Shown one piece after another: positions 1 through 17,097 of a DNA stretch of 20,000 nucleotides. Positions within the stretch are counted from its first letter, which is position 1. Each line of letters begins with the position of its first letter. Under the pieces are notes generated by a model, which was given only the letters and a program-made list of their open reading frames with translations, was not told where the DNA came from and did not search any database. A program made the translations under genes and the position numbers. Source of the stretch: an uncultured virus (IMG/VR IMGVR_UViG_3300037424_001060) (taxonomy: Duplodnaviria; Heunggongvirae; Uroviricota; Caudoviricetes); IMG/VR virus record IMGVR_UViG_3300037424_001060; one strand, 5' to 3'.

Positions 1-513
1 CCCCAGCCCAGATGTCCTCCCCTTGCATCACCCAGTCTACCCCTGCTGGCCATGTCACCATTCCAGCTTACAAGTCGGAGTCAACCGCGCCTTTTGCTTA
101 CCAAAGTCTCAGCAGGAATCGAACCTGCGTCCGTCGTACCAACCCTCTGCGAACGAGCCGGAATCGAACCGGCGATGCTTTGAACCCCTCTCGCGGTCCC
201 CTTTTCAGCGGTTACAGCCGCTACTAAGGCCACGGCACACCTGCCGCGAGTTCCCGTGGTCAGGGCAGGGCAGCTACTCCTGCCCAGGGGCCAGTTGGAC
301 GAGTGGGACTCGAACCCACAACTCCCGCTTGAGTGTGCCTCAGTCATGACTTGGGTCGTTCACCCACGGGTTGTGATTGCCGTTATCACTATCGTCCACA
401 AGGGTGTATACTCCCCTTGCTTACCATCTGTTATCGAGAGTCCATTCGGTAGCTGCAACTACAAACTTCGCCACTTTGCAGGTTACCAGGATGATGTCCC
501 GCTCTCAATTTCC
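1..513 (-). ncRNA. Candidate large structured ncRNA (GOLLD/ROOL-like), running off the left window edge and containing a tRNA-like domain
   Basis: No credible ORF in over 500 nt. Dense hairpins: CTCGCGG/CCGCGAG (250-244 with 196-190), AGCGG/CCGCT (207-222), GGGCAGG/CCTGCCC (~263-285), CAAGGG/CCCTTG (~399-419). Two free T-arm hairpins with TTCGATT loops (157-173, 112-128). Lies downstream of a tRNA in a phage. The family assignment is inference only. Confidence 0.5.
295..398 (-). ncRNA. tRNA-like RNA with the anticodon loop replaced by a 37-nt structured insert
   Basis: On the minus strand: acceptor TGGACGA/TCGTCCA, U8-A9, D-arm GTGA-TAACGGCAA-TCAC, stem CCCGT/GCGGG, short variable AGTT, T-arm GTGGG-TTCGAGT-CCCAC. 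There is no 7-nt anticodon loop. Confidence 0.75.
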
Positions 514-864
514 TTACAATTCTCTGTCTGGGTCAAAGTGAATCTCTGCGTGACAATTCTTGCACACTAGTTCACATTTGTCAAGTTCTAACTTTACTTT
601 ATCCCAGGCCCGTGTTCGCCCGTTCTGACCGATTCCATACTCTTTGTCATCGTGTGGATGATGGAACTCCAACGCTGACGGACACTTATCGTACCCACAG
701 TGAAAGCATGCTCCACCCTTGTACTCAATGGCTTTCAGCTTGAGCCTACGACGCCAACGGGTTACCTTACCGGGATCTTTACGGTTACACTCTATAGAGC
801 AGTAAAGAGTGTGACCCTTTCTTCTAGGCTCAAACTCATTGCCGCAATATACACACGTCAACAT
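514..864 (-). CDS. Small free-standing HNH endonuclease with an N-terminal Zn ribbon
   Basis: N-terminal CVYCGNEF...YCSIEC; KAIEYKGGACFHCG...ALEFHH...KCELVCKNCHAEIH HNH signature. SD AGGAG immediately after the tRNA-Asn 3' end. More AT-rich than neighbouring genes. Confidence 0.9.
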   Translation of the reverse strand: MLTCVYCGNEFEPRRKGHTLYCSIECNRKDPGKVTRWRRRLKLKAIEYKGGACFHCGYDKCPSALEFHHPHDDKEYGIGQNGRTRAWDKVKLELDKCELVCKNCHAEIHFDPDREL

Positions 865-879
865 ACTTTGTTCTCCTAG

Positions 880-952
880 CTGCCAGAACTGGAGTCGAAC
901 CAGTAACCACCGCTTTAACAGAGCGGCGCACTACCTGTTGTGCTATCTGGCA
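880..952 (-). tRNA. trnN: tRNA-Asn (GTT), CCA not encoded
   Basis: Acceptor TGCCAGA/TCTGGCA plus discriminator G, D-arm GCAC/GTGC, anticodon arm CCGCT-CT-GTT-AA-AGCGG, T-arm ACTGG-TTCGACT-CCAGT. Confidence 0.95.
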
Positions 953-2021: not shown

Positions 2022-2231
2022 TTAGTGTTCCTCCCCGGAAATGTTTCCGGGGCGATGACCCCTTAATGTTTTTCCTTTTCCCTTGTGATCCTTTCGGGGT
2101 GCCATAGACGAGTTTCCCACATATTTCTTCTCGGCTCGATCGGATCTACCGGCCCGCAACACGGTGTCCGGTTTGTAGTGCTTAGAGTAATTACATACCG
2201 GCTTAGGGGTGAAGTCATCTTCGCTTATCAT
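2022..2231 (-). CDS. Small basic hypothetical protein (69 aa)
   Basis: ATGA overlap with the polymerase stop; K/R-rich. Confidence 0.6.
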   Translation of the reverse strand: MISEDDFTPKPVCNYSKHYKPDTVLRAGRSDRAEKKYVGNSSMAPRKDHKGKGKTLRGHRPGNISGEEH

Positions 2232-4945
2232 ATGTATTCTACCAGCCCCTCGTTTTCTTCATATGCTGGTTCTTCGTCCAGCTCTTCCAACTCTTCGATG
2301 TCCATGGGCGCTACATACACGCCATCATCGTACACTTCCTTGATACCGTGTGGGCCTACATGCAGGGTGGCTTCCCCTCCGCCCTTTTTCCCGGCCCAGT
2401 TGTTCATTCGCTTCACCCACTTAATACCAATGAGTGGCACCCGATCGCGATACGATTCTACCACCTCAACAACTATGTCGGCCACCTCATCGGCGTGGTC
2501 TGGATGCGTCACTGTTAACACTTCGTCGTGGATGTTGATAGGGGCCACTATCCATTCGCCGATCCCCGCCGGCTGCAAGTCCCAGATTCGCCGCTGCAAG
2601 TCTTTCGTAATGATGGCACCGGGCGACTGAATCAAGTGGTTATTACCAGCTCGAATGTTAGCGGCCTGTATCTGGAACGCCGCGCCATACAGGGCGGAGG
2701 CCACTGCCCCGGCCGGGGTCTGGTCCTTTTCGCGTCGATTGACCTTGAAGTCCAGGTTGCACCAGTTGCGAGGCACATTGTGTGCCAAGTCAAATAGAGC
2801 CTTCGCTATTTTGTTCTCGATGGTGAAGTATCGGCGGAAGCCTAAGAACGTCTCAATATACTCAGCGGGTTCCTTGTAGGTGATCTTGCCGCCGTCCTCG
2901 TCCTGTGCCAGGGCCCCGAACATTTCCTCTACCCGCTTGCGTGCTTCACGCATGCCAGGATATTTGTTCTGGAAATTCTCGCACGCCATCTCCGCGATCT
3001 TCATCTCGATGTTCAACTTCTTGTTGATCGTAGTATGGTCACCACCATACAGCAGGGCGAACACCGACTGCTTAGCACGCGTGTACATATCGACATCGCC
3101 GCCGTCCTTGAAGCCTTTACTGGCTTTGATCTGTGCTTCGTTCTTATCTGGGTACAGCTCCAATGCCATCAGGGTATGGATGGACTTTCCCGCCAGAAGA
3201 TCCTCACGAAGCCGGGCATCTTGAAACACCGCGTCCGCGAGCGTCACTTCAAATCCGTCGAAGTCACCACCGCACAGGATCATGTCACCCCACATGAGCG
3301 GGAAGCTACTTCGTACTTCCTCGGAGCCCTTGATCCCTTGGGCATTCAGACCGTCGCCGCCCGCCATTCTCGAAGAGAGGGTACCAATCACTTTGAAGCT
3401 GGCGTGGAATCTTCCGGCCTGCAACAACTTACGGTACAGCTCTACTTCCTTCGCGGCTGCTTTGATCTTGAGAATTTCATCCGCCCGCTTCGCCGCGTTG
3501 GTGGGACCCAAGTAGAGAAAGCCTCTGCCGTCACAGCGTGGGCATTCTCCGCCCTCTCCAAGGCAGCGAACACAGAACTCACCCCCCGGCTCACGTCCTG
3601 TGGCGAGACACCGAGGGCACTTGCCGTTGCCTTTACATCCGAGACAAAGCGGGTCCTCTGGTGGCTTTCCATTTTTATCAAGAGGTTCCAGACCGGTCCC
3701 CCCGCAGCGCACACACTTGCAACTTCCTTTGCAATCATGGCACGGCTCGTCGCACAGTGTTGGGTCCAGGGCATCTCTCGGAACGACATACTTGCTCCGT
3801 ATCTTCTCTAAGTTTGCTTTTTTGGTACTCTTGTCAATCAGAGTAGCTTCACTCTCATCCATGACGTGCCGGATGTACGCCTTCACCTGCGCCGGCTTGT
3901 TGATGTTTACTGGAGATGCTTCGAGTACCGATAGGGACTTACGCAACAGCAAATTGATTTGGTCAATGTCGATCGTGAAGCCATGCCACCGAACAGCCGA
4001 CACCATGCAGGCGAGGACAGAGTCATCGTCACCCGCTTCAGGGAATTCGAAGTATTCGTCCAACAGTCTGGTGTAGGTGACGTCGTCGCCGCCGTACTCT
4101 CTTGCTTCAAGATTGTTTCTCCAATGTTCGATGTCACCTTTCAGCAAGGCGGGCCACGCGTAACCTTTCAGCTTCCCTTGCTTGTCAAATACTTTCCACT
4201 CTTTCTCCGCGTTGGACAGACCGAGAGCGAAGGGCACGTGTCCCAGCTCGGTCAGCTTGTGTTGCCGGACAGGATACACTTCCTTGAACGAGTGATAGGT
4301 GGGGTCCAGACCGAGGCAGTGCTGAGCAAGATACTTGAGCCCACGATTTGGCTTGAACTTGAGCGTGACATCCTTGAAGTTGGGATCTACTTGATCTTCC
4401 TTTCCTCGCTTGATTCGATCGTAGATACCCCACTTGGGCGCGTTCTGATTGGCCCTCCCGGCGAACAGAATGCCGTCCAGCTCGATGCGCTTCTCCAGCT
4501 CATCGGCCAGCGGCTTGCACAAAATGGTGGGCACCTTCGTTACACGGATGTCGTGCCGCGACATAAGGGACTGGAACTTACCCTTCCGTGAATGTAACAT
4601 CAGGCAGATGACGTTCTTTGGCTTCAAGCAAGGGCCGTCGCGACCATCCATCTCAGCCTGCGCCAGAACCTCCACCGGCAACTCGCCCGGTATAGCGTCG
4701 GGCGGCAACAGGCGGAACATGGTGTAGATCTTGCAGATGTGAAACATGTCATAGGTGGCGTTGAAAAAGCAAAGAGTGTGCCTCATGAACTCTTCGATCA
4801 ACGCGAGCGTGTCCTTCGCCGGCACGTCCCACAAGTTGTGCAGCACCACAGGACCGTCTTCAAACGCGTATTGTAGCAGCGTGGCGAGTCCGTGGAATCC
4901 GATCGTCTCGCTGTCGATGTAGTAGCAGTCTTTTCTGAATCTCAT
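2228..4945 (-). CDS. polA: Phage family A DNA polymerase with 3'-5' exonuclease and a Cys-rich thumb insertion
   Basis: ExoI IDSET, ExoII FNATYDM, ExoIII YGGDDV; motif A GGDFDGFEV, motif B RAKQSVFALLYGG, motif C IHDEV; acidic C-terminal tail. Confidence 0.93.
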   Translation of the reverse strand: MRFRKDCYYIDSETIGFHGLATLLQYAFEDGPVVLHNLWDVPAKDTLALIEEFMRHTLCFFNATYDMFHICKIYTMFRLLPPDAIPGELPVEVLAQAEMDGRDGPCLKPKNVICLMLHSRKGKFQSLMSRHDIRVTKVPTILCKPLADELEKRIELDGILFAGRANQNAPKWGIYDRIKRGKEDQVDPNFKDVTLKFKPNRGLKYLAQHCLGLDPTYHSFKEVYPVRQHKLTELGHVPFALGLSNAEKEWKVFDKQGKLKGYAWPALLKGDIEHWRNNLEAREYGGDDVTYTRLLDEYFEFPEAGDDDSVLACMVSAVRWHGFTIDIDQINLLLRKSLSVLEASPVNINKPAQVKAYIRHVMDESEATLIDKSTKKANLEKIRSKYVVPRDALDPTLCDEPCHDCKGSCKCVRCGGTGLEPLDKNGKPPEDPLCLGCKGNGKCPRCLATGREPGGEFCVRCLGEGGECPRCDGRGFLYLGPTNAAKRADEILKIKAAAKEVELYRKLLQAGRFHASFKVIGTLSSRMAGGDGLNAQGIKGSEEVRSSFPLMWGDMILCGGDFDGFEVTLADAVFQDARLREDLLAGKSIHTLMALELYPDKNEAQIKASKGFKDGGDVDMYTRAKQSVFALLYGGDHTTINKKLNIEMKIAEMACENFQNKYPGMREARKRVEEMFGALAQDEDGGKITYKEPAEYIETFLGFRRYFTIENKIAKALFDLAHNVPRNWCNLDFKVNRREKDQTPAGAVASALYGAAFQIQAANIRAGNNHLIQSPGAIITKDLQRRIWDLQPAGIGEWIVAPINIHDEVLTVTHPDHADEVADIVVEVVESYRDRVPLIGIKWVKRMNNWAGKKGGGEATLHVGPHGIKEVYDDGVYVAPMDIEELEELDEEPAYEENEGLVEYI

Positions 4946-5286
4946 AAGGCTACACCGTGCTCCAATACTTCAATATCATCGGGGTGAACCAGGAACGACT
5001 TTCCTTCCAGGCGGGTCTTGCACTTGTACAATCGGATGTAGCGCGCCACTTCCAAGCGGGCAGGAACATCAGTATCAGGGCCGTAGAATGAGAAGCGGTC
5101 CCTGCCGGGCATGTACTTGCCAATGGCTCTCTTCACCGACCCCACAACCGTGCAACGAAACGGTGTCACGGCGTCGGTGCGGGTCAACCGCTTGTGGTCA
5201 TCAGAATCATACTCTACACAGGACACCCGGCTGACGATCACTTCATCTCCCAACCGCAGTCCTAGCGGATTCGTCGGGGTCCTCAT
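4942..5286 (-). CDS. Hypothetical protein (probable start MRTP at 5286)
   Basis: ATGA overlaps at both ends. Confidence 0.7.
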   Translation of the reverse strand: MRTPTNPLGLRLGDEVIVSRVSCVEYDSDDHKRLTRTDAVTPFRCTVVGSVKRAIGKYMPGRDRFSFYGPDTDVPARLEVARYIRLYKCKTRLEGKSFLVHPDDIEVLEHGVAL

Positions 5287-5666
5287 CGCAACACCAACTT
5301 GTGAACTTCGACGCGCCATCTTTCTTCTCCATAGCGGCCCCAGACCAGGGTCGGTGAATACTGCGTGGAAGATGTGTAAACCGGCATGTCTCCATAATGT
5401 TTTTCAATTACCGCGACCTGTTCGCGGGCATAGTGCATCGCTGACATTACATCCTTGTAGACGTAGAACTCCGGGTCGCCGTGATCGTCGTACACGTACA
5501 CCAGGAAAATCATGCCGAGGTTCAGCGCCGCCGCGATCTGGTGGGCCACGGAGGTTTCCCAGCATCTGCAAAATGGATTATCGGGGGCATCGGGGTCTTT
5601 TTCCCACACGTCGGATTCGTACGGCTCTTCGTCATATGGCTCGACGCTATACGTCTTTGTCATCAA
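5283..5666 (-). CDS. Hypothetical acidic protein (127 aa)
   Basis: SD GGAG upstream; coupled to its neighbours. Confidence 0.7.
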   Translation of the reverse strand: MMTKTYSVEPYDEEPYESDVWEKDPDAPDNPFCRCWETSVAHQIAAALNLGMIFLVYVYDDHGDPEFYVYKDVMSAMHYAREQVAVIEKHYGDMPVYTSSTQYSPTLVWGRYGEERWRVEVHKLVLR

Positions 5667-13396: not shown

Positions 13397-15278
13397 AGAT
13401 TTCCTGTAGCTCGCCCAGAGTCATGGATTCTAACCGTCGGTTGTCTCGCAAAACAGCAAGGACTTTACGATCCGAGGACAGGTGAAACAAGTCCACGATC
13501 GTTGCCCCTTTATTCTCGTCAATGCCAGGGCGATGTATGCGGTCTTCGGCCTGCATGCGCGATTCTGGTGTGTAGTCGTTCGAATAAAATACGGCCATTC
13601 TCGATTCGGTGAGAGTGAGGCCCATACCGCCGGACGCGGGGTGGGCGACGAACGCCACACGCTCATTGTGCAGGTTGGCCCAGTAGTCCAGGGGCTTGAT
13701 ATCTCTATCAACTGGCTCCCCATCGTGCCGTAGAATTTTCCATCCGCGACCGTCAACTTTCACAACGTCCCAGCACTCGTTGTGGCACATCTTAACAATC
13801 TTGTCCACGGAGCCTTGGAAGCCGGCGAAGATAACAATTCGACCTTGATCTTCATTCTCTTCCAGTAGGTCACGAATCGCTTCATCCTTGGGGCACTTCA
13901 GTTCCTTCGTCTCGCGCACCATGTGGGGTACCTTGCCCGTGCCCTCGCACTTCTCGCAGGTAGCCATTTCCTTAATGGGGTCGCAGGTTAGGTCCGTGTA
14001 GTCCCACTGTTCGCAAACTCCAGAGCCCTTGCACACCGGGCACTCTTCCTCGCCTTCCTGTTTCTCTCGATACTGGAATCCGTCCGACAATTCACGAAGC
14101 CAAGTGATTCCCTGGATGGCTGATTCAGCGGCGGATACAAGAGCCTTGGCAACACGCTTTAGAGTCGGGGTTGGCTCAAGAGTAACCTCCCGATAGATCT
14201 TATCGGGAATATCCAGGCAGTCCTTTTTCTTCAGGACCAGAACCAGACCAGCCAACCGTTCGTGCAGATAGGCCACTTCGTTGATTGACTCGACCCACTC
14301 GTGTGAATTTTCGCCAACGCCAAAGATGTCATCCATCTCGTGCTTCGGGTGCTCGGCCAACTCTCCGCACACATTGCACTTACGCGAGTCGTCGCGCCAC
14401 GTGACACGCTTCCAGAAGTCGCCTTGATCGGCGGTTTTCTTCTGTTCAAAGATGGCCAGTCTCCATTCAAAGGCTTTCGCCGAGCCTTCCTTCAAGAAGC
14501 CGGGAGCTACCACTTCACACTGCGACCACCAGTCCACCGGGGATTTTGGCGCAGGCGTGCCAGACATGCAAATGACATAGCCGTCCCAGCCATATTCGTT
14601 GCGGATGGCGTCGGCTACCCACATGCCGGCCTTTGTTCGCTTGGCACTGGAAGATTTTAACCGAGATGACTCGTCAAAGATGATGCCCTTCGGAGCGGGC
14701 ATACCGGCTTCCCACTGCTCTACTTCGATGCGGAGCCGTTCATAGGTCATGACGCGGGGTTGTACTCGGAGCCCCCACTTGTCCCACTCGCGCTCGACAG
14801 CAGCGATACCGGACTTGGGAGCAACATACCACCAGTCCAGGACACCCGATTGTTCCATTAACTCGATGGCTGACAGTGATTTACCAACACCCATTTCAGC
14901 CGCCAGGAGCTGATAGTGGTAGGTCAACATGCAGTCTGTCATCCGCTTCTGGTGGTCAAACAGCGGGCGACTGTACCCCCAATTTCGCAGGGGTTGTTCC
15001 CAGTTGGCGTACGGGTTGCCACCGGTCATGAAGTCGATCTGGAAGTTGTTTCGACAACAATCTTCCACCGACCACAGCTTACGTCCATCCCCGTCAATGC
15101 GCTGGTGGAACCGGCTCCCACGCATGGCCTTAATCTCGTCCTTCAGCTCGAAGGGTGTCGTGTTATGCCTACCGTGTGTATGCCACAAGATGCGGCCGTC
15201 CACACGCTCAAGATCAACAGGGTAGTAGTATTGAGTACCCTTCTTTGTCTCTTTGATTATGCGGATGGATTCAATCAT
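13386..15278 (-). CDS. SNF2-like superfamily 2 DNA helicase
   Basis: Walker A EMGVGKS, Walker B IIFDESS, motif III SGTP, motif V SGGMGLTL, motif VI QAEDRIHRPG; Cys-rich inserts. Confidence 0.93.
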   Translation of the reverse strand: MIESIRIIKETKKGTQYYYPVDLERVDGRILWHTHGRHNTTPFELKDEIKAMRGSRFHQRIDGDGRKLWSVEDCCRNNFQIDFMTGGNPYANWEQPLRNWGYSRPLFDHQKRMTDCMLTYHYQLLAAEMGVGKSLSAIELMEQSGVLDWWYVAPKSGIAAVEREWDKWGLRVQPRVMTYERLRIEVEQWEAGMPAPKGIIFDESSRLKSSSAKRTKAGMWVADAIRNEYGWDGYVICMSGTPAPKSPVDWWSQCEVVAPGFLKEGSAKAFEWRLAIFEQKKTADQGDFWKRVTWRDDSRKCNVCGELAEHPKHEMDDIFGVGENSHEWVESINEVAYLHERLAGLVLVLKKKDCLDIPDKIYREVTLEPTPTLKRVAKALVSAAESAIQGITWLRELSDGFQYREKQEGEEECPVCKGSGVCEQWDYTDLTCDPIKEMATCEKCEGTGKVPHMVRETKELKCPKDEAIRDLLEENEDQGRIVIFAGFQGSVDKIVKMCHNECWDVVKVDGRGWKILRHDGEPVDRDIKPLDYWANLHNERVAFVAHPASGGMGLTLTESRMAVFYSNDYTPESRMQAEDRIHRPGIDENKGATIVDLFHLSSDRKVLAVLRDNRRLESMTLGELQEIFDE

Positions 15279-15752: not shown

Positions 15753-16499
15753 CTACATTTCGTCCATGAAAATATCCCAGGTTCCTCTGGTACGATTATA
15801 TTTCTTCGATTTTACCATGAACCGTGTGCCCGACCTAAACAAGACTTCATTCTCTTCCGAGAAGTTTGAAACCTTCTCAATCCATTTCCCCGTCTTAGAT
15901 TTGATTACAAAGCGGGTTTGTCCCTCGTCTGCCCCCTCGAACGGTCGATACGACGGTGTGGAACTTCGACTGGTGCTAACAAACTCTTTCAGAACAACGG
16001 GTTTACCAGGGACGTAGGCGTCCGCAAGTGTGGCGCTACGATCATTTATTGTTCGGTATACCTGCCCTTCGTAGTTTCTTACTTTGTCCAGCGATGCGTT
16101 CAATTCATTCTTGAATGCCCCGGCCCGCTTCACATAGTCCGCGATTACGGCATCACTTTCTCCTGACAGTTCTAATGTCTGCTTGAATCCTTTCGGGTCG
16201 TATATCGAACGATTCAGTTTCTCGGCGTTCAATCCTTTGAATCTCTCACCGCCCATTATGTGCCCACCAGAGTAGGCTGTTATCGGCTGTATATCGGCAC
16301 CTGGAAGATGCTCGACATTTTTTCCGGGGCCGGTCAACACTCCACCTGGATTAAGAACAGGGTCTTCGGAATCACTGTGATAGCCGGGATTTCTAACAGC
16401 CGGCGGAACCTTCTCCACGGCACCGCCACCGGCACCGCCACCACCGCCACCAGATCTACCTCCGCCGCCGCCTCCGCCAGTTCCGCTACCCTTGGGCAT
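15753..16499 (-). CDS. R-S-E class mono-ADP-ribosyltransferase (VIP2/Alt/Mod-like) with a poly-Gly N-terminal leader
   Basis: YEGQVYR (catalytic R), EFVSTSRS (STS), SNFSEENEVLFRSGTRF (ExE). Start MPKGSGTGGGGGGG at 16499 with SD GAGGT. Confidence 0.88.
   Translation of the reverse strand: MPKGSGTGGGGGGGRSGGGGGGAGGGAVEKVPPAVRNPGYHSDSEDPVLNPGGVLTGPGKNVEHLPGADIQPITAYSGGHIMGGERFKGLNAEKLNRSIYDPKGFKQTLELSGESDAVIADYVKRAGAFKNELNASLDKVRNYEGQVYRTINDRSATLADAYVPGKPVVLKEFVSTSRSSTPSYRPFEGADEGQTRFVIKSKTGKWIEKVSNFSEENEVLFRSGTRFMVKSKKYNRTRGTWDIFMDEM
16420..16490. repeat. Low-complexity (CCG/CCA)n tract encoding the poly-Gly leader
   Basis: caccgccaccggcaccgccaccaccgccacc...ccgccgccgcctccgcc encodes GSGTGGGGGGGRSGGGGGGAGGG. 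Confidence 0.8.
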
Positions 16500-17097
16500 C
16501 AGACACCTCGCGTGACGCGTTTCGAGCGTCGGGGACATTTACAAGGTCACACAGGCTGCAAAAGTCTCTGACCAATGGCCCGCCACCATACACCAGGAAG
16601 TTGAGCTGGTTGCCACAGGCTCGCTCGGTGGCTTGATCTAATTGTTCTCTCAGCATGTCGATCTGATCGTCGCATGCGGAGGTTGAATAGGATGGCCAAC
16701 CGTCCGGGACACCTAGCAAATTGATGCCCGCGAACTTCGGGGCGACATTCATATCGACGAAGATATTCATGCCGGCCGACTGCCAGAACCGAGCCATCCA
16801 TCGCTTCATGTAAATACGCCAGATACCGACCGCCATTGGCATTTGATCGTCAGTGGTGTAGTTGGCCTCACAGCAATTGTAGGCCTTCGTCTTCAGGACA
16901 GCATCTGGGTGCTTCCACAGTGCCGTGAACTTCTCGTCGTCGACATAGAAGTGCCATGTGCCTCGCATGCGGGATTTCCGTGAGACGGAACCCCAGCCGC
17001 GCACCGGCAAATCCACAAACGTGCCATGTCTCTCGAACATGAGCATCGGGATTTCCAGGTGGTTGTCTGTCGGAAACAAGCAATCAGGCACTCTCAT
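16486..17097 (-). CDS. DUF4417-family protein
   Basis: DNHLEIPML, WHFYVDDEKF, ANYT, IYMKRWMARFWQSAG, GVP and LVYGG match the DUF4417 pattern as I recall it. Confidence 0.8.
   Translation of the reverse strand: MRVPDCLFPTDNHLEIPMLMFERHGTFVDLPVRGWGSVSRKSRMRGTWHFYVDDEKFTALWKHPDAVLKTKAYNCCEANYTTDDQMPMAVGIWRIYMKRWMARFWQSAGMNIFVDMNVAPKFAGINLLGVPDGWPSYSTSACDDQIDMLREQLDQATERACGNQLNFLVYGGGPLVRDFCSLCDLVNVPDARNASREVSDAQG

Follow-up and report, generated by a model that had tools for sequence, protein, structure and literature searches.

A transfer RNA-shaped element that encloses two hairpins in place of an anticodon loop in the genome of an uncultured phage

The window analyzed here is a stretch of 20,000 nucleotides (nt), visible to us as a 20-kilobase (kb) part of a contig of ~77 kb (76,868 bp), from an uncultured virus of the class Caudoviricetes (IMG/VR record IMGVR_UViG_3300037424_001060). 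All of its long open reading frames (ORFs) lie on the minus strand. Near its start, a 500-nt gene-free stretch with a GC content of 0.60 to 0.63 holds the subject of this report, an element shaped like a transfer RNA (tRNA) at 398..294 on the minus strand, 105 nt long including the discriminator A295 and C294, as delimited by reading of the sequence, by intron-mode ARAGORN (c[294,398]), and by a custom scan. The gene-free stretch lies 3′ of a canonical tRNA-Asn(GTT) gene at 879..952 (minus strand; called by ARAGORN and matched by the Rfam tRNA model at 68.6 bits) and of an HNH endonuclease gene at 514..864 (minus strand; PHROG phrog_2255, E = 5.4e-23), which sits between tRNA-Asn and the element. 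The tRNA-Asn gene is the upstream neighbor, ~500 nt away and in the same orientation. A first-pass annotation made from the letters alone had placed a non-decoding tRNA mimic at this site; its coordinates were accurate, and the sequence it quoted is that of the minus strand.

All parts of the element are given here as they read on the minus strand. The acceptor stem is formed by a 5′ strand TGGACGA (392..398) and a 3′ strand TCGTCCA (296..302), which form seven of seven Watson-Crick pairs and are followed, in the sequence and in the ARAGORN call, by the discriminator A295. The next bases are CTGG, and CCA is not encoded, as the first-pass annotation had stated. A TA dinucleotide separates the acceptor strand from the D arm, GTGA-TAACGGCAA-TCAC (373..389), which is recovered by sequence reading, ARAGORN, and folding alike and carries G18 and G19 in its loop AACGGCA(A). 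A fifth D-stem pair is possible from the flanking T and A, and the folding tool draws 5 bp. Two bases (AA) rather than one separate the D stem from the anticodon stem, whose strands CCCGT (366..370) and GCGGG (324..328) form five pairs, one of them T.G. A variable region of 4 nt (AGTT) precedes the T arm GTGGG TTCGAGT CCCAC (303..319), likewise evident both in the sequence and to ARAGORN. Altogether, 21 of 21 stem pairs form in the ARAGORN cloverleaf, the single T.G among them. The elbow was described at first as canonical, which holds for G18 G19 and for T54-T55-C56, all of which are present, and fails for the two-base linker, the 4-nt variable loop, and the first D-loop base, a T in place of the near-universal A14. 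The U8-A14 tertiary pair is thus absent; if the D stem is drawn with 5 bp, the T at position 14 pairs with A21.

Where a tRNA would have its anticodon loop, the stem closes on 37 nt (329..365). A strict scan and direct reading of the sequence bear out the earlier description of this enclosure and of the intact acceptor, D, and T arms around it, and both hairpins and the palindrome reported within it are present. Hairpin 1, GGGT GAACG ACCC, occupies 353..365; hairpin 2, TGAG GCACA CTCA, occupies 330..342 and has a computed pair probability of 0.74 to 0.86. The linker between them holds a perfect 10-nt palindrome, AGTCATGACT (342..351), found exactly once in the window; 0.53 matches would be expected in the window if one mismatch were allowed, and the chance of a 10-nt palindrome within 37 nt is ~0.03 by simple arithmetic, which makes it only mildly unusual. 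Intron-mode ARAGORN divides the same 37 nt into a 30-nt “intron” (336-365) and a 7-nt loop, CACTCAA (329-335).

The tRNA-shaped anatomy of the element is beyond chance, because a strict scan for a T arm with a TTCRANN loop, seven of seven acceptor pairs, and a D arm with GG gave 3 matches in the real window, whereas 100 block shuffles averaged 0.02 (one match in each of two shuffles). The element is also a non-standard tRNA, since both of the usual tools miss it: default ARAGORN reports only the tRNA-Asn(GTT) at 952..879, and Rfam RF00005 over 294-398 has no match either at its gathering threshold (29 bits) or at E ≤ 10. When examined as a member of the tRNA class, it shows the four-stem cloverleaf with the T loop and the D-loop GG and lacks a 7-nt anticodon loop with U33. 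ARAGORN with intron options, a check that the first-pass annotation had proposed, does call the element, as a 75-nt tRNA-Glu(ctc) with a 30-nt intron at 31/32 (“cccgt-Intron-cactc”); this call leaves the loop CACTCAA with A33, the site is noncanonical, and U33 appears in no reading.

Several established kinds of insert or gene were considered and set aside. An intron of the archaeal/eukaryal type is rejected, as no bulge-helix-bulge motif (BHB; 3-nt bulge, 4-bp helix, 3-nt bulge) was found around the insert in either orientation; the sole match of the BHB scan spans the T arm, and shuffles of the element give 1.4 matches each. Self-splicing group I and group II introns are rejected too: the insert of 30 to 37 nt compares with a core of ~200 nt or more, in keeping with the earlier judgment that it is too short, and no Rfam intron model matched. 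No RNA ligase, RtcB, or splicing endonuclease was seen among the 25 to 26 scanned proteins of the window. A transfer-messenger RNA (tmRNA) at 398..150, for which an alanine- and valine-rich frame with a stop was seen by eye, was dropped after ARAGORN -m found 0 tmRNAs in 1-1300. A plus-strand Rfam match to “Plastid-ycf2” is spurious (19.3 bits versus a threshold of 65.7), being a mirror image of the T arm. A protein-coding role is likewise rejected, as none of the 4 ORFs that overlap the element has a PHROG match.

We asked whether the element recurs in related phages. PHROG and Pfam searches of the window proteins identify a family-A DNA polymerase at 2228-4945. No near match to the window was found by megablast among 50,697 GenBank phages, and sensitive blastn against known phages matched the HNH gene and tRNA-Asn only. 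Because the window polymerase aligns with GenBank phages only in segments of 24 to 27% identity and has 554 metagenomic relatives at E ≤ 1e-10 (best non-self hit 76% identical, on contigs of 50 to 117 kb), the source is, by these comparisons, an uncultured phage from a well-populated and uncharacterized clade. Relatives were fetched around polymerase homologs of 36 to 75% identity, giving 80 of 369 confirmed metagenome loci and 80 of 97 viral loci. BLAST of the element against 161 related loci returned only matches the size of a T arm. A covariance model built from the element (R1) was run on 82 sources, with L082-L161 left out; the element itself scored 136 bits, and everything else scored at most 34 bits and consisted of ordinary tRNAs. 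In five whole genomes, those of the closest viral relatives, R1 found one 73-nt tRNA at 19.8 bits. An exact 22-mer from the 3′ half of the element occurred 0 times in viral contigs and 0 times in 185,579 host genomes, a 30-mer of the insert had no match in 81 loci, and an 18-mer of the insert occurred 0 times in the viral collection. A 15-mer of the insert had 31 viral-contig matches, all unrelated, mostly in coding-looking contexts and none in a tRNA. The covariance-model search that the first-pass annotation had suggested thus yielded no homolog and hence no covariation. Parts of the phage are present in three sediment metagenome runs. A contig of one of them (X3, the sediment metagenome of a second study) is identical to window positions 105-373 with 0 differences, which shows only that the same phage persists elsewhere and gives no variation; a minor variant in another (X1, probably the source sample) spans only 71-253 and gives no variation over the element. 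Since no homolog appeared in the 161 loci, the 82 R1 sources, the five genomes, the viral collection, or the host genomes, the element is, throughout this material, a singleton.

Abnormal tRNA-shaped genes as such are not confined to the window. A tRNA-Asn(GTT) lies near the polymerase in 27 of 80 loci (L001-L080) and is the sole tRNA kept by most members; the stretch 3′ of it differs from relative to relative. In the closest of these relatives (L001, 75% polymerase identity), a tRNA-shaped gene at 14554-14684 has a perfect body and 64 nt enclosed, and ARAGORN sets a 57-nt insert at the same 5′ loop edge as in the element, leaving the loop CTGGTAG. That insert ends in CTTGCCTTATC, and a motif of the form CTTGCC...GGTCGAA...GGGTTATC stands at 14702-14732, at the cut end of the locus; compared by eye, both appear to be variants of the Y-like module described below. 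Enlarged loops also occur in L011 (5443-5528; an 11-nt loop with TGATCA) and L017 (12801-12882; a 14-nt loop with TGACGTCA). As a post hoc observation, the enlarged loops of the element, L017, and L011 all hold TGA/TCA palindromes (AGTCATGACT, TGACGTCA, and TGATCA, respectively), and all three are in tRNA-shaped genes 3′ of tRNA-Asn. The gene at 8724-8823 in L037 is homologous to a 73-nt gene in L038 (5668-5740) and has enlarged D and anticodon loops: the acceptor, anticodon, and T stems of the pair are identical, and the D loop measures 10 versus ~30 nt and the anticodon loop 7 versus 15 nt. Both genes have TGC rather than TTC in the T loop, and the 7-nt anticodon loop, CCGGTAG, has C33. Further tRNA-shaped genes that ARAGORN missed are found in L081 (2733-2830), L003 (5270-5345), and L054 (478-557, the same as L055 2384-2463); their anticodon regions are over- or undersized or their acceptor stems imperfect.

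More distant relatives provide a clearer case. In phages with a 45 to 49% identical polymerase, ARAGORN -i gives many tRNAs with “introns” of 31 to 84 nt, and these contain one conserved module of ~47 nt. Its outer helix is CGCTTTC.../...GAAAGCG, its inner part is CTTGCC, a loop of 3 to 5 nt, and GGGCCGAA, and its 3′ end is RTTATC. The module lies between the D and anticodon arms of Asn(GTT)- or Ile(GAT)-like genes in L133 (3134-3258), L138 (3010-3134), L119 (269-391), and L139 (5449-5571), and after the loop in the next gene in L119 (399-529), L133 (3265-3392), and L138 (3142-3272). L133 (3395-3491), L156, and L113 have looser variants. The regions as a whole are L133 3068-3560, L138 2942-3660, L119 269-700, L139 5449-5571, L113 12221-12560, and L156 581-706 and 3029-3175, and the tRNA genes that carry the stem are Asn(GTT)-, Ile(GAT)-, and Leu-like. 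The same half-motifs in classical order (GGGCCGA...TTATC ... CTTGCCC) form stand-alone hairpins directly flanking these genes. A covariance model of the module (R2) recovered 7 good copies, spread over 4 of 100 sources, and 0 in the window; 95% of the cells in these copies pair, and double changes occur in 3 of 13 pairs, a number reached by 16 of 500 shuffles. Rfam YrlA matches the arrays below threshold (37.9 versus 69 bits) and only across two neighboring genes. All six searched viral records that contain the module also have a TROVE (Ro60) gene, close downstream in 5 (in L133, at 3618-5423) and elsewhere on the record in L139. We read the module as capped, Ro60-binding-like Y-RNA stems that appear to have been grafted into otherwise complete tRNA genes. 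The alternative of permuted YrlA units spanning two genes is disfavored, as the L139 gene is single and the L133 array is bounded by complete classical Y hairpins.

Published accounts describe related arrangements: Thermus phage phiLo carries two Y-RNA-like genes upstream of Ro60, with a conserved CGAA in the bound stem (as presented in 2025, PMC12135203), YrlA RNAs are known in phages, and bacterial YrlA has tRNA-like domains that are modified and cut by tRNA enzymes (both as related by Chen et al. 2014, PMC4201824). A tRNA/Y-RNA chimera beside Ro60 was not found in the literature searched; the supplementary lists of PMC4201824 might include some examples. In the window, no YrlA (RF02553) match was obtained in 1-1200 at E ≤ 10, neither a motif scan nor R2, both of which detect the Ro60-binding stem in relatives, found such a stem or a CGAA motif in the element, and no Ro60 (TROVE) gene was found among 25 proteins or by tblastn. 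TROVE is likewise missing from all five of the closest viral relatives of the window, two of which are at least 90% complete. A Y-RNA reading of the insert is therefore rejected, and because the module motifs are absent from the insert and the subclade seems to be without Ro60, we judge that the element is not a Y RNA. Taken together, the sequences of these relatives indicate that foreign stems in the anticodon-arm region are tolerated by tRNA bodies of the clade and, in one case, clearly put to use. The presence of such tRNA-borne stems therefore raises the prior that the element is a working tRNA-shaped RNA.

Downstream of the element, a second conserved non-coding element occupies 40..179 on the minus strand and is considered here as context only. 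It contains T-arm-like hairpins at 173-157 and 128-112, the first of which reads GCCGG TTCGATT CCGGC and is followed by TCGTTCG. It is 84.6% identical over 117 nt to a segment (4032-4175) of L029, a phage whose polymerase is only 52% identical, is thus better conserved than the proteins, and also occurs in L011 (5650-5790) and L081 (2501-2560). Its second T-arm-like stem covaries (GCAGG / GTGGG / GAGGG). It has no Rfam match, and the three sequences give no clear consensus fold. A phage attachment site that copies the end of a host tRNA was considered for its T arm and rejected, with 0 exact matches in 185,579 host genomes. Elsewhere in the window, PHROG and Pfam name an SNF2-type helicase, an SbcD-like exonuclease, a ParB-like protein, and a DUF4417 nuclease. 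A 261-amino-acid protein encoded at 15753-16538 on the minus strand has Pfam ADP-ribosyltransferase matches (ART, E = 2.1e-6; ADPrib_exo_Tox, E = 8.6e-6), and the PHROG matches of its C-terminal part are to proteins of head maturation and to minor head proteins. At 556-584, within the 3′-terminal part of the HNH gene and ~150 nt before the tRNA-shaped element, the minus strand has a promoter-like site (TTGACA, a 17-nt spacing, and AAGAAT preceded by TG); it is a consensus match only, and positions 1-1500 hold 3 such sites versus 1.1 expected.

The best single description of the tRNA-shaped element, which we put forward tentatively and short of conviction, is a phage gene for a non-decoding tRNA-shaped RNA that acts as a mimic or scaffold. 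Such an RNA would be co-transcribed with the neighboring tRNA-Asn and RNA genes and excised like a tRNA by RNase P and 3′ processing enzymes; the host CCA-adding enzyme would supply CCA, and the RNA would take the L shape of a tRNA. Its anticodon stem would end in a small junction of two hairpins and a palindromic linker rather than a 7-nt loop, precluding codon pairing. The tRNA body might then give stability and access to tRNA-handling proteins, and the insert would be the working part, serving perhaps to bind a protein of the phage or host or to bait enzymes that check anticodon arms. Support for a mimic comes from the intact stems, the phage context, the lack of a known intron signature, and the precedent in the clade. 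A broader proposal, which we regard as rather unlikely, is that the clade habitually uses a tRNA body as a carrier that shows a foreign RNA module at the place of the anticodon loop, the module of the element being a new one made of two hairpins and a palindromic linker; this module could serve to bind a dimeric protein or to join two RNAs by pairing. If true, the carrier habit would let a phage feed a decoy or tether into the tRNA-handling or RNA-surveillance machinery of its host.

A number of observations weigh against a functional mimic. As a singleton, the element shows no covariation and no sign of selection. The insert was also considered as a mobile module, and this is rejected, as its exact words recur in no tRNA context. 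The three runs that contain parts of the phage include no RNA run. The off-consensus features of the body (T14, the two-base linker at 26, and the 4-nt variable loop) are such as a decaying gene would also show. The fold stability of the element is ordinary relative to shuffles (z = -0.98), and the computed energy of the cloverleaf (-37.2 kcal/mol) is matched by that of another fold (-37.3 kcal/mol), in which GUGGG from the beginning of the insert pairs with the CCCAC of the T stem; in the computed ensemble, this T-arm-breaking alternative accounts for 62% versus 25% for the T arm. Hairpin 1, moreover, looks like an accidental local duplication rather than a designed module. All four points of singleton status, duplication-like insert, off-consensus body, and competing fold fit a freshly broken tRNA gene equally well. 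The claim of a non-decoding tRNA-like domain made in the first-pass annotation is accordingly upheld in part: the lack of a 7-nt loop, the A33 of the intron model, and the absence of a BHB and of an Rfam tRNA match agree with it, and no homolog shows selection for it.

The freshly broken gene, a pseudo-tRNA of the kind that the first-pass annotation had named as refuting its own reading, is a real possibility, though one we would not bet on. The element would then be what is left of an ordinary tRNA gene, its isotype uncertain, after a recent 30-nt insertion on the 5′ side of the anticodon loop, perhaps through slipped local duplication, had disabled it; it would now be functionless and awaiting deletion. 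Hairpin 1 with its flanks, GTGGGT-GAACGA-CCCA, repeats the stem letters of the element's own T arm (GTGGGT-TCGAGT-CCCA); alignment of the two 48-nt units is better than in shuffles (p = 0.0045) and loses this distinction when hairpin 1 is left out (p = 0.18). A tandem duplication of the whole 48-nt 3′ half is rejected, since the similarity is confined to the first hairpin, and part of the insert may have arisen by local duplication, and this would also account for the competing fold. The last 7 of the 37 nt, CACTCAA, look like a decayed anticodon loop and resemble the loops CCTTCAA and CTTTCAA of tRNA-Glu(TTC) in L001 and L004, and the D-loop string TAACGGCAAT is common to the element and the tRNA-Glu(TTC) of L001; these likenesses are suggestive and no more. 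Loss of function would further suit the singleton status, the off-consensus T14 and A33, and the variability among relatives of the region 3′ of tRNA-Asn. On the other side, the still perfect state of every stem would require a very recent event, phages have compact genomes, and the element stands among conserved RNA genes. No parent can be named either: with the 30 nt removed, many tRNAs of relatives match the body at 63 to 69% identity, the Glu(TTC) and Asn(GTT) genes are tied, and the name tRNA-Glu is therefore an ARAGORN label only. Nor does any of the 185,579 host genomes carry an exact copy of the 3′ half.

Two further accounts of the element appear improbable to us. In one, it is a working tRNA-Glu(CUC) whose 30-nt intron, of an undescribed kind, is removed by an endonuclease and ligase of the phage or host. 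The intron-mode ARAGORN call speaks for this account, short unexplained conserved inserts are on record in phage tRNA genes (Devoto et al., Lak megaphages), and the 57-nt insert of the closest relative at the same 5′ loop edge leaves a good loop, CTGGTAG. It has to accommodate A33 instead of U33, the noncanonical 31/32 site, the missing BHB, a length far below that of group I or II introns, a window in whose scanned proteins neither an RNA ligase or RtcB nor a splicing endonuclease was seen, and the lack of any intron-less or intron-bearing homolog that would fix the excision points. In the other, equally doubtful, the element belongs as a single domain to a longer structured RNA reaching into the conserved element at 179..40, a possibility also raised in the first-pass annotation, for which a single weak hint emerged: TGGACGA (392-398), the 5′ acceptor strand, can also pair 7/7, with two G.T pairs, with the TCGTTCG (150-156) behind the next T arm (173-157), which makes a G3.T70 pair and gives one 5′ half two possible 3′ halves. 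The strong conservation of the downstream element despite the divergence of the polymerases, and the lack of a terminator-like site between the two elements, would fit a joint RNA. The downstream element nonetheless occurs without the tRNA-shaped element in L029, L011, and L081, the tRNA-shaped element closes perfectly alone, and the alternative pairing could have arisen simply because the acceptor sequences are alike.

Two roles are commonly given for phage tRNA genes, codon supply and evasion of the anticodon nucleases of the host. A non-decoding tRNA body with all stems kept would point instead to tRNA mimicry, in which processing and stability are borrowed to deliver an RNA element. The chimeras in relatives would link phage tRNAs to the Ro60/Y-RNA system and offer a stronger lesson than the element itself. 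In genome annotation, genes of this sort escape default tRNA finders or are wrongly labelled as tRNAs with introns. Compared with canonical phage tRNAs (RF00005), the element is alike in its four stems, G18 G19, TTCGAGT loop, unencoded CCA (as in the neighboring tRNA-Asn), and place in a tRNA cluster; it differs in having 37 nt, no U33, and T14 where these tRNAs have a 7-nt loop with U33 and A14. The stable RNAs C and D of phage T4 (“species 1 and 2”) are phage RNAs of unknown role that are processed with the T4 tRNA cluster; they resemble the element, by description only, as phage RNAs sited among tRNA genes. The tRNAs of Lak megaphages have “enigmatic” short introns that Devoto et al. (2019, PMC6784885) describe as conserved between genomes, and the first entry of Table S6 of that paper is a Tyr(GTA) with a 93-nt insert at 37/38 that includes a T-arm-like piece. 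In the element as in the Lak introns so described, a short anticodon-loop insert is called only by an intron-aware finder and has no known mechanism of removal; the Lak introns differ in being conserved across genomes and, in the Tyr(GTA) example, in the length of 93 nt and the site at 37/38, whereas the element is a singleton with 30 to 37 nt at 31/32 and A33. Finally, the element differs from YrlA and other Y RNAs (RF02553; PMC4201824; phiLo Yrl1/Yrl2, PMC12135203), as these sources portray them, in being without a Ro60-binding stem, CGAA, a YrlA match, or a TROVE gene in the 20-kb window and in not being circularly permuted, and it is like them in uniting a tRNA-like body with a non-tRNA stem at the place of the anticodon arm and, probably, in not decoding.

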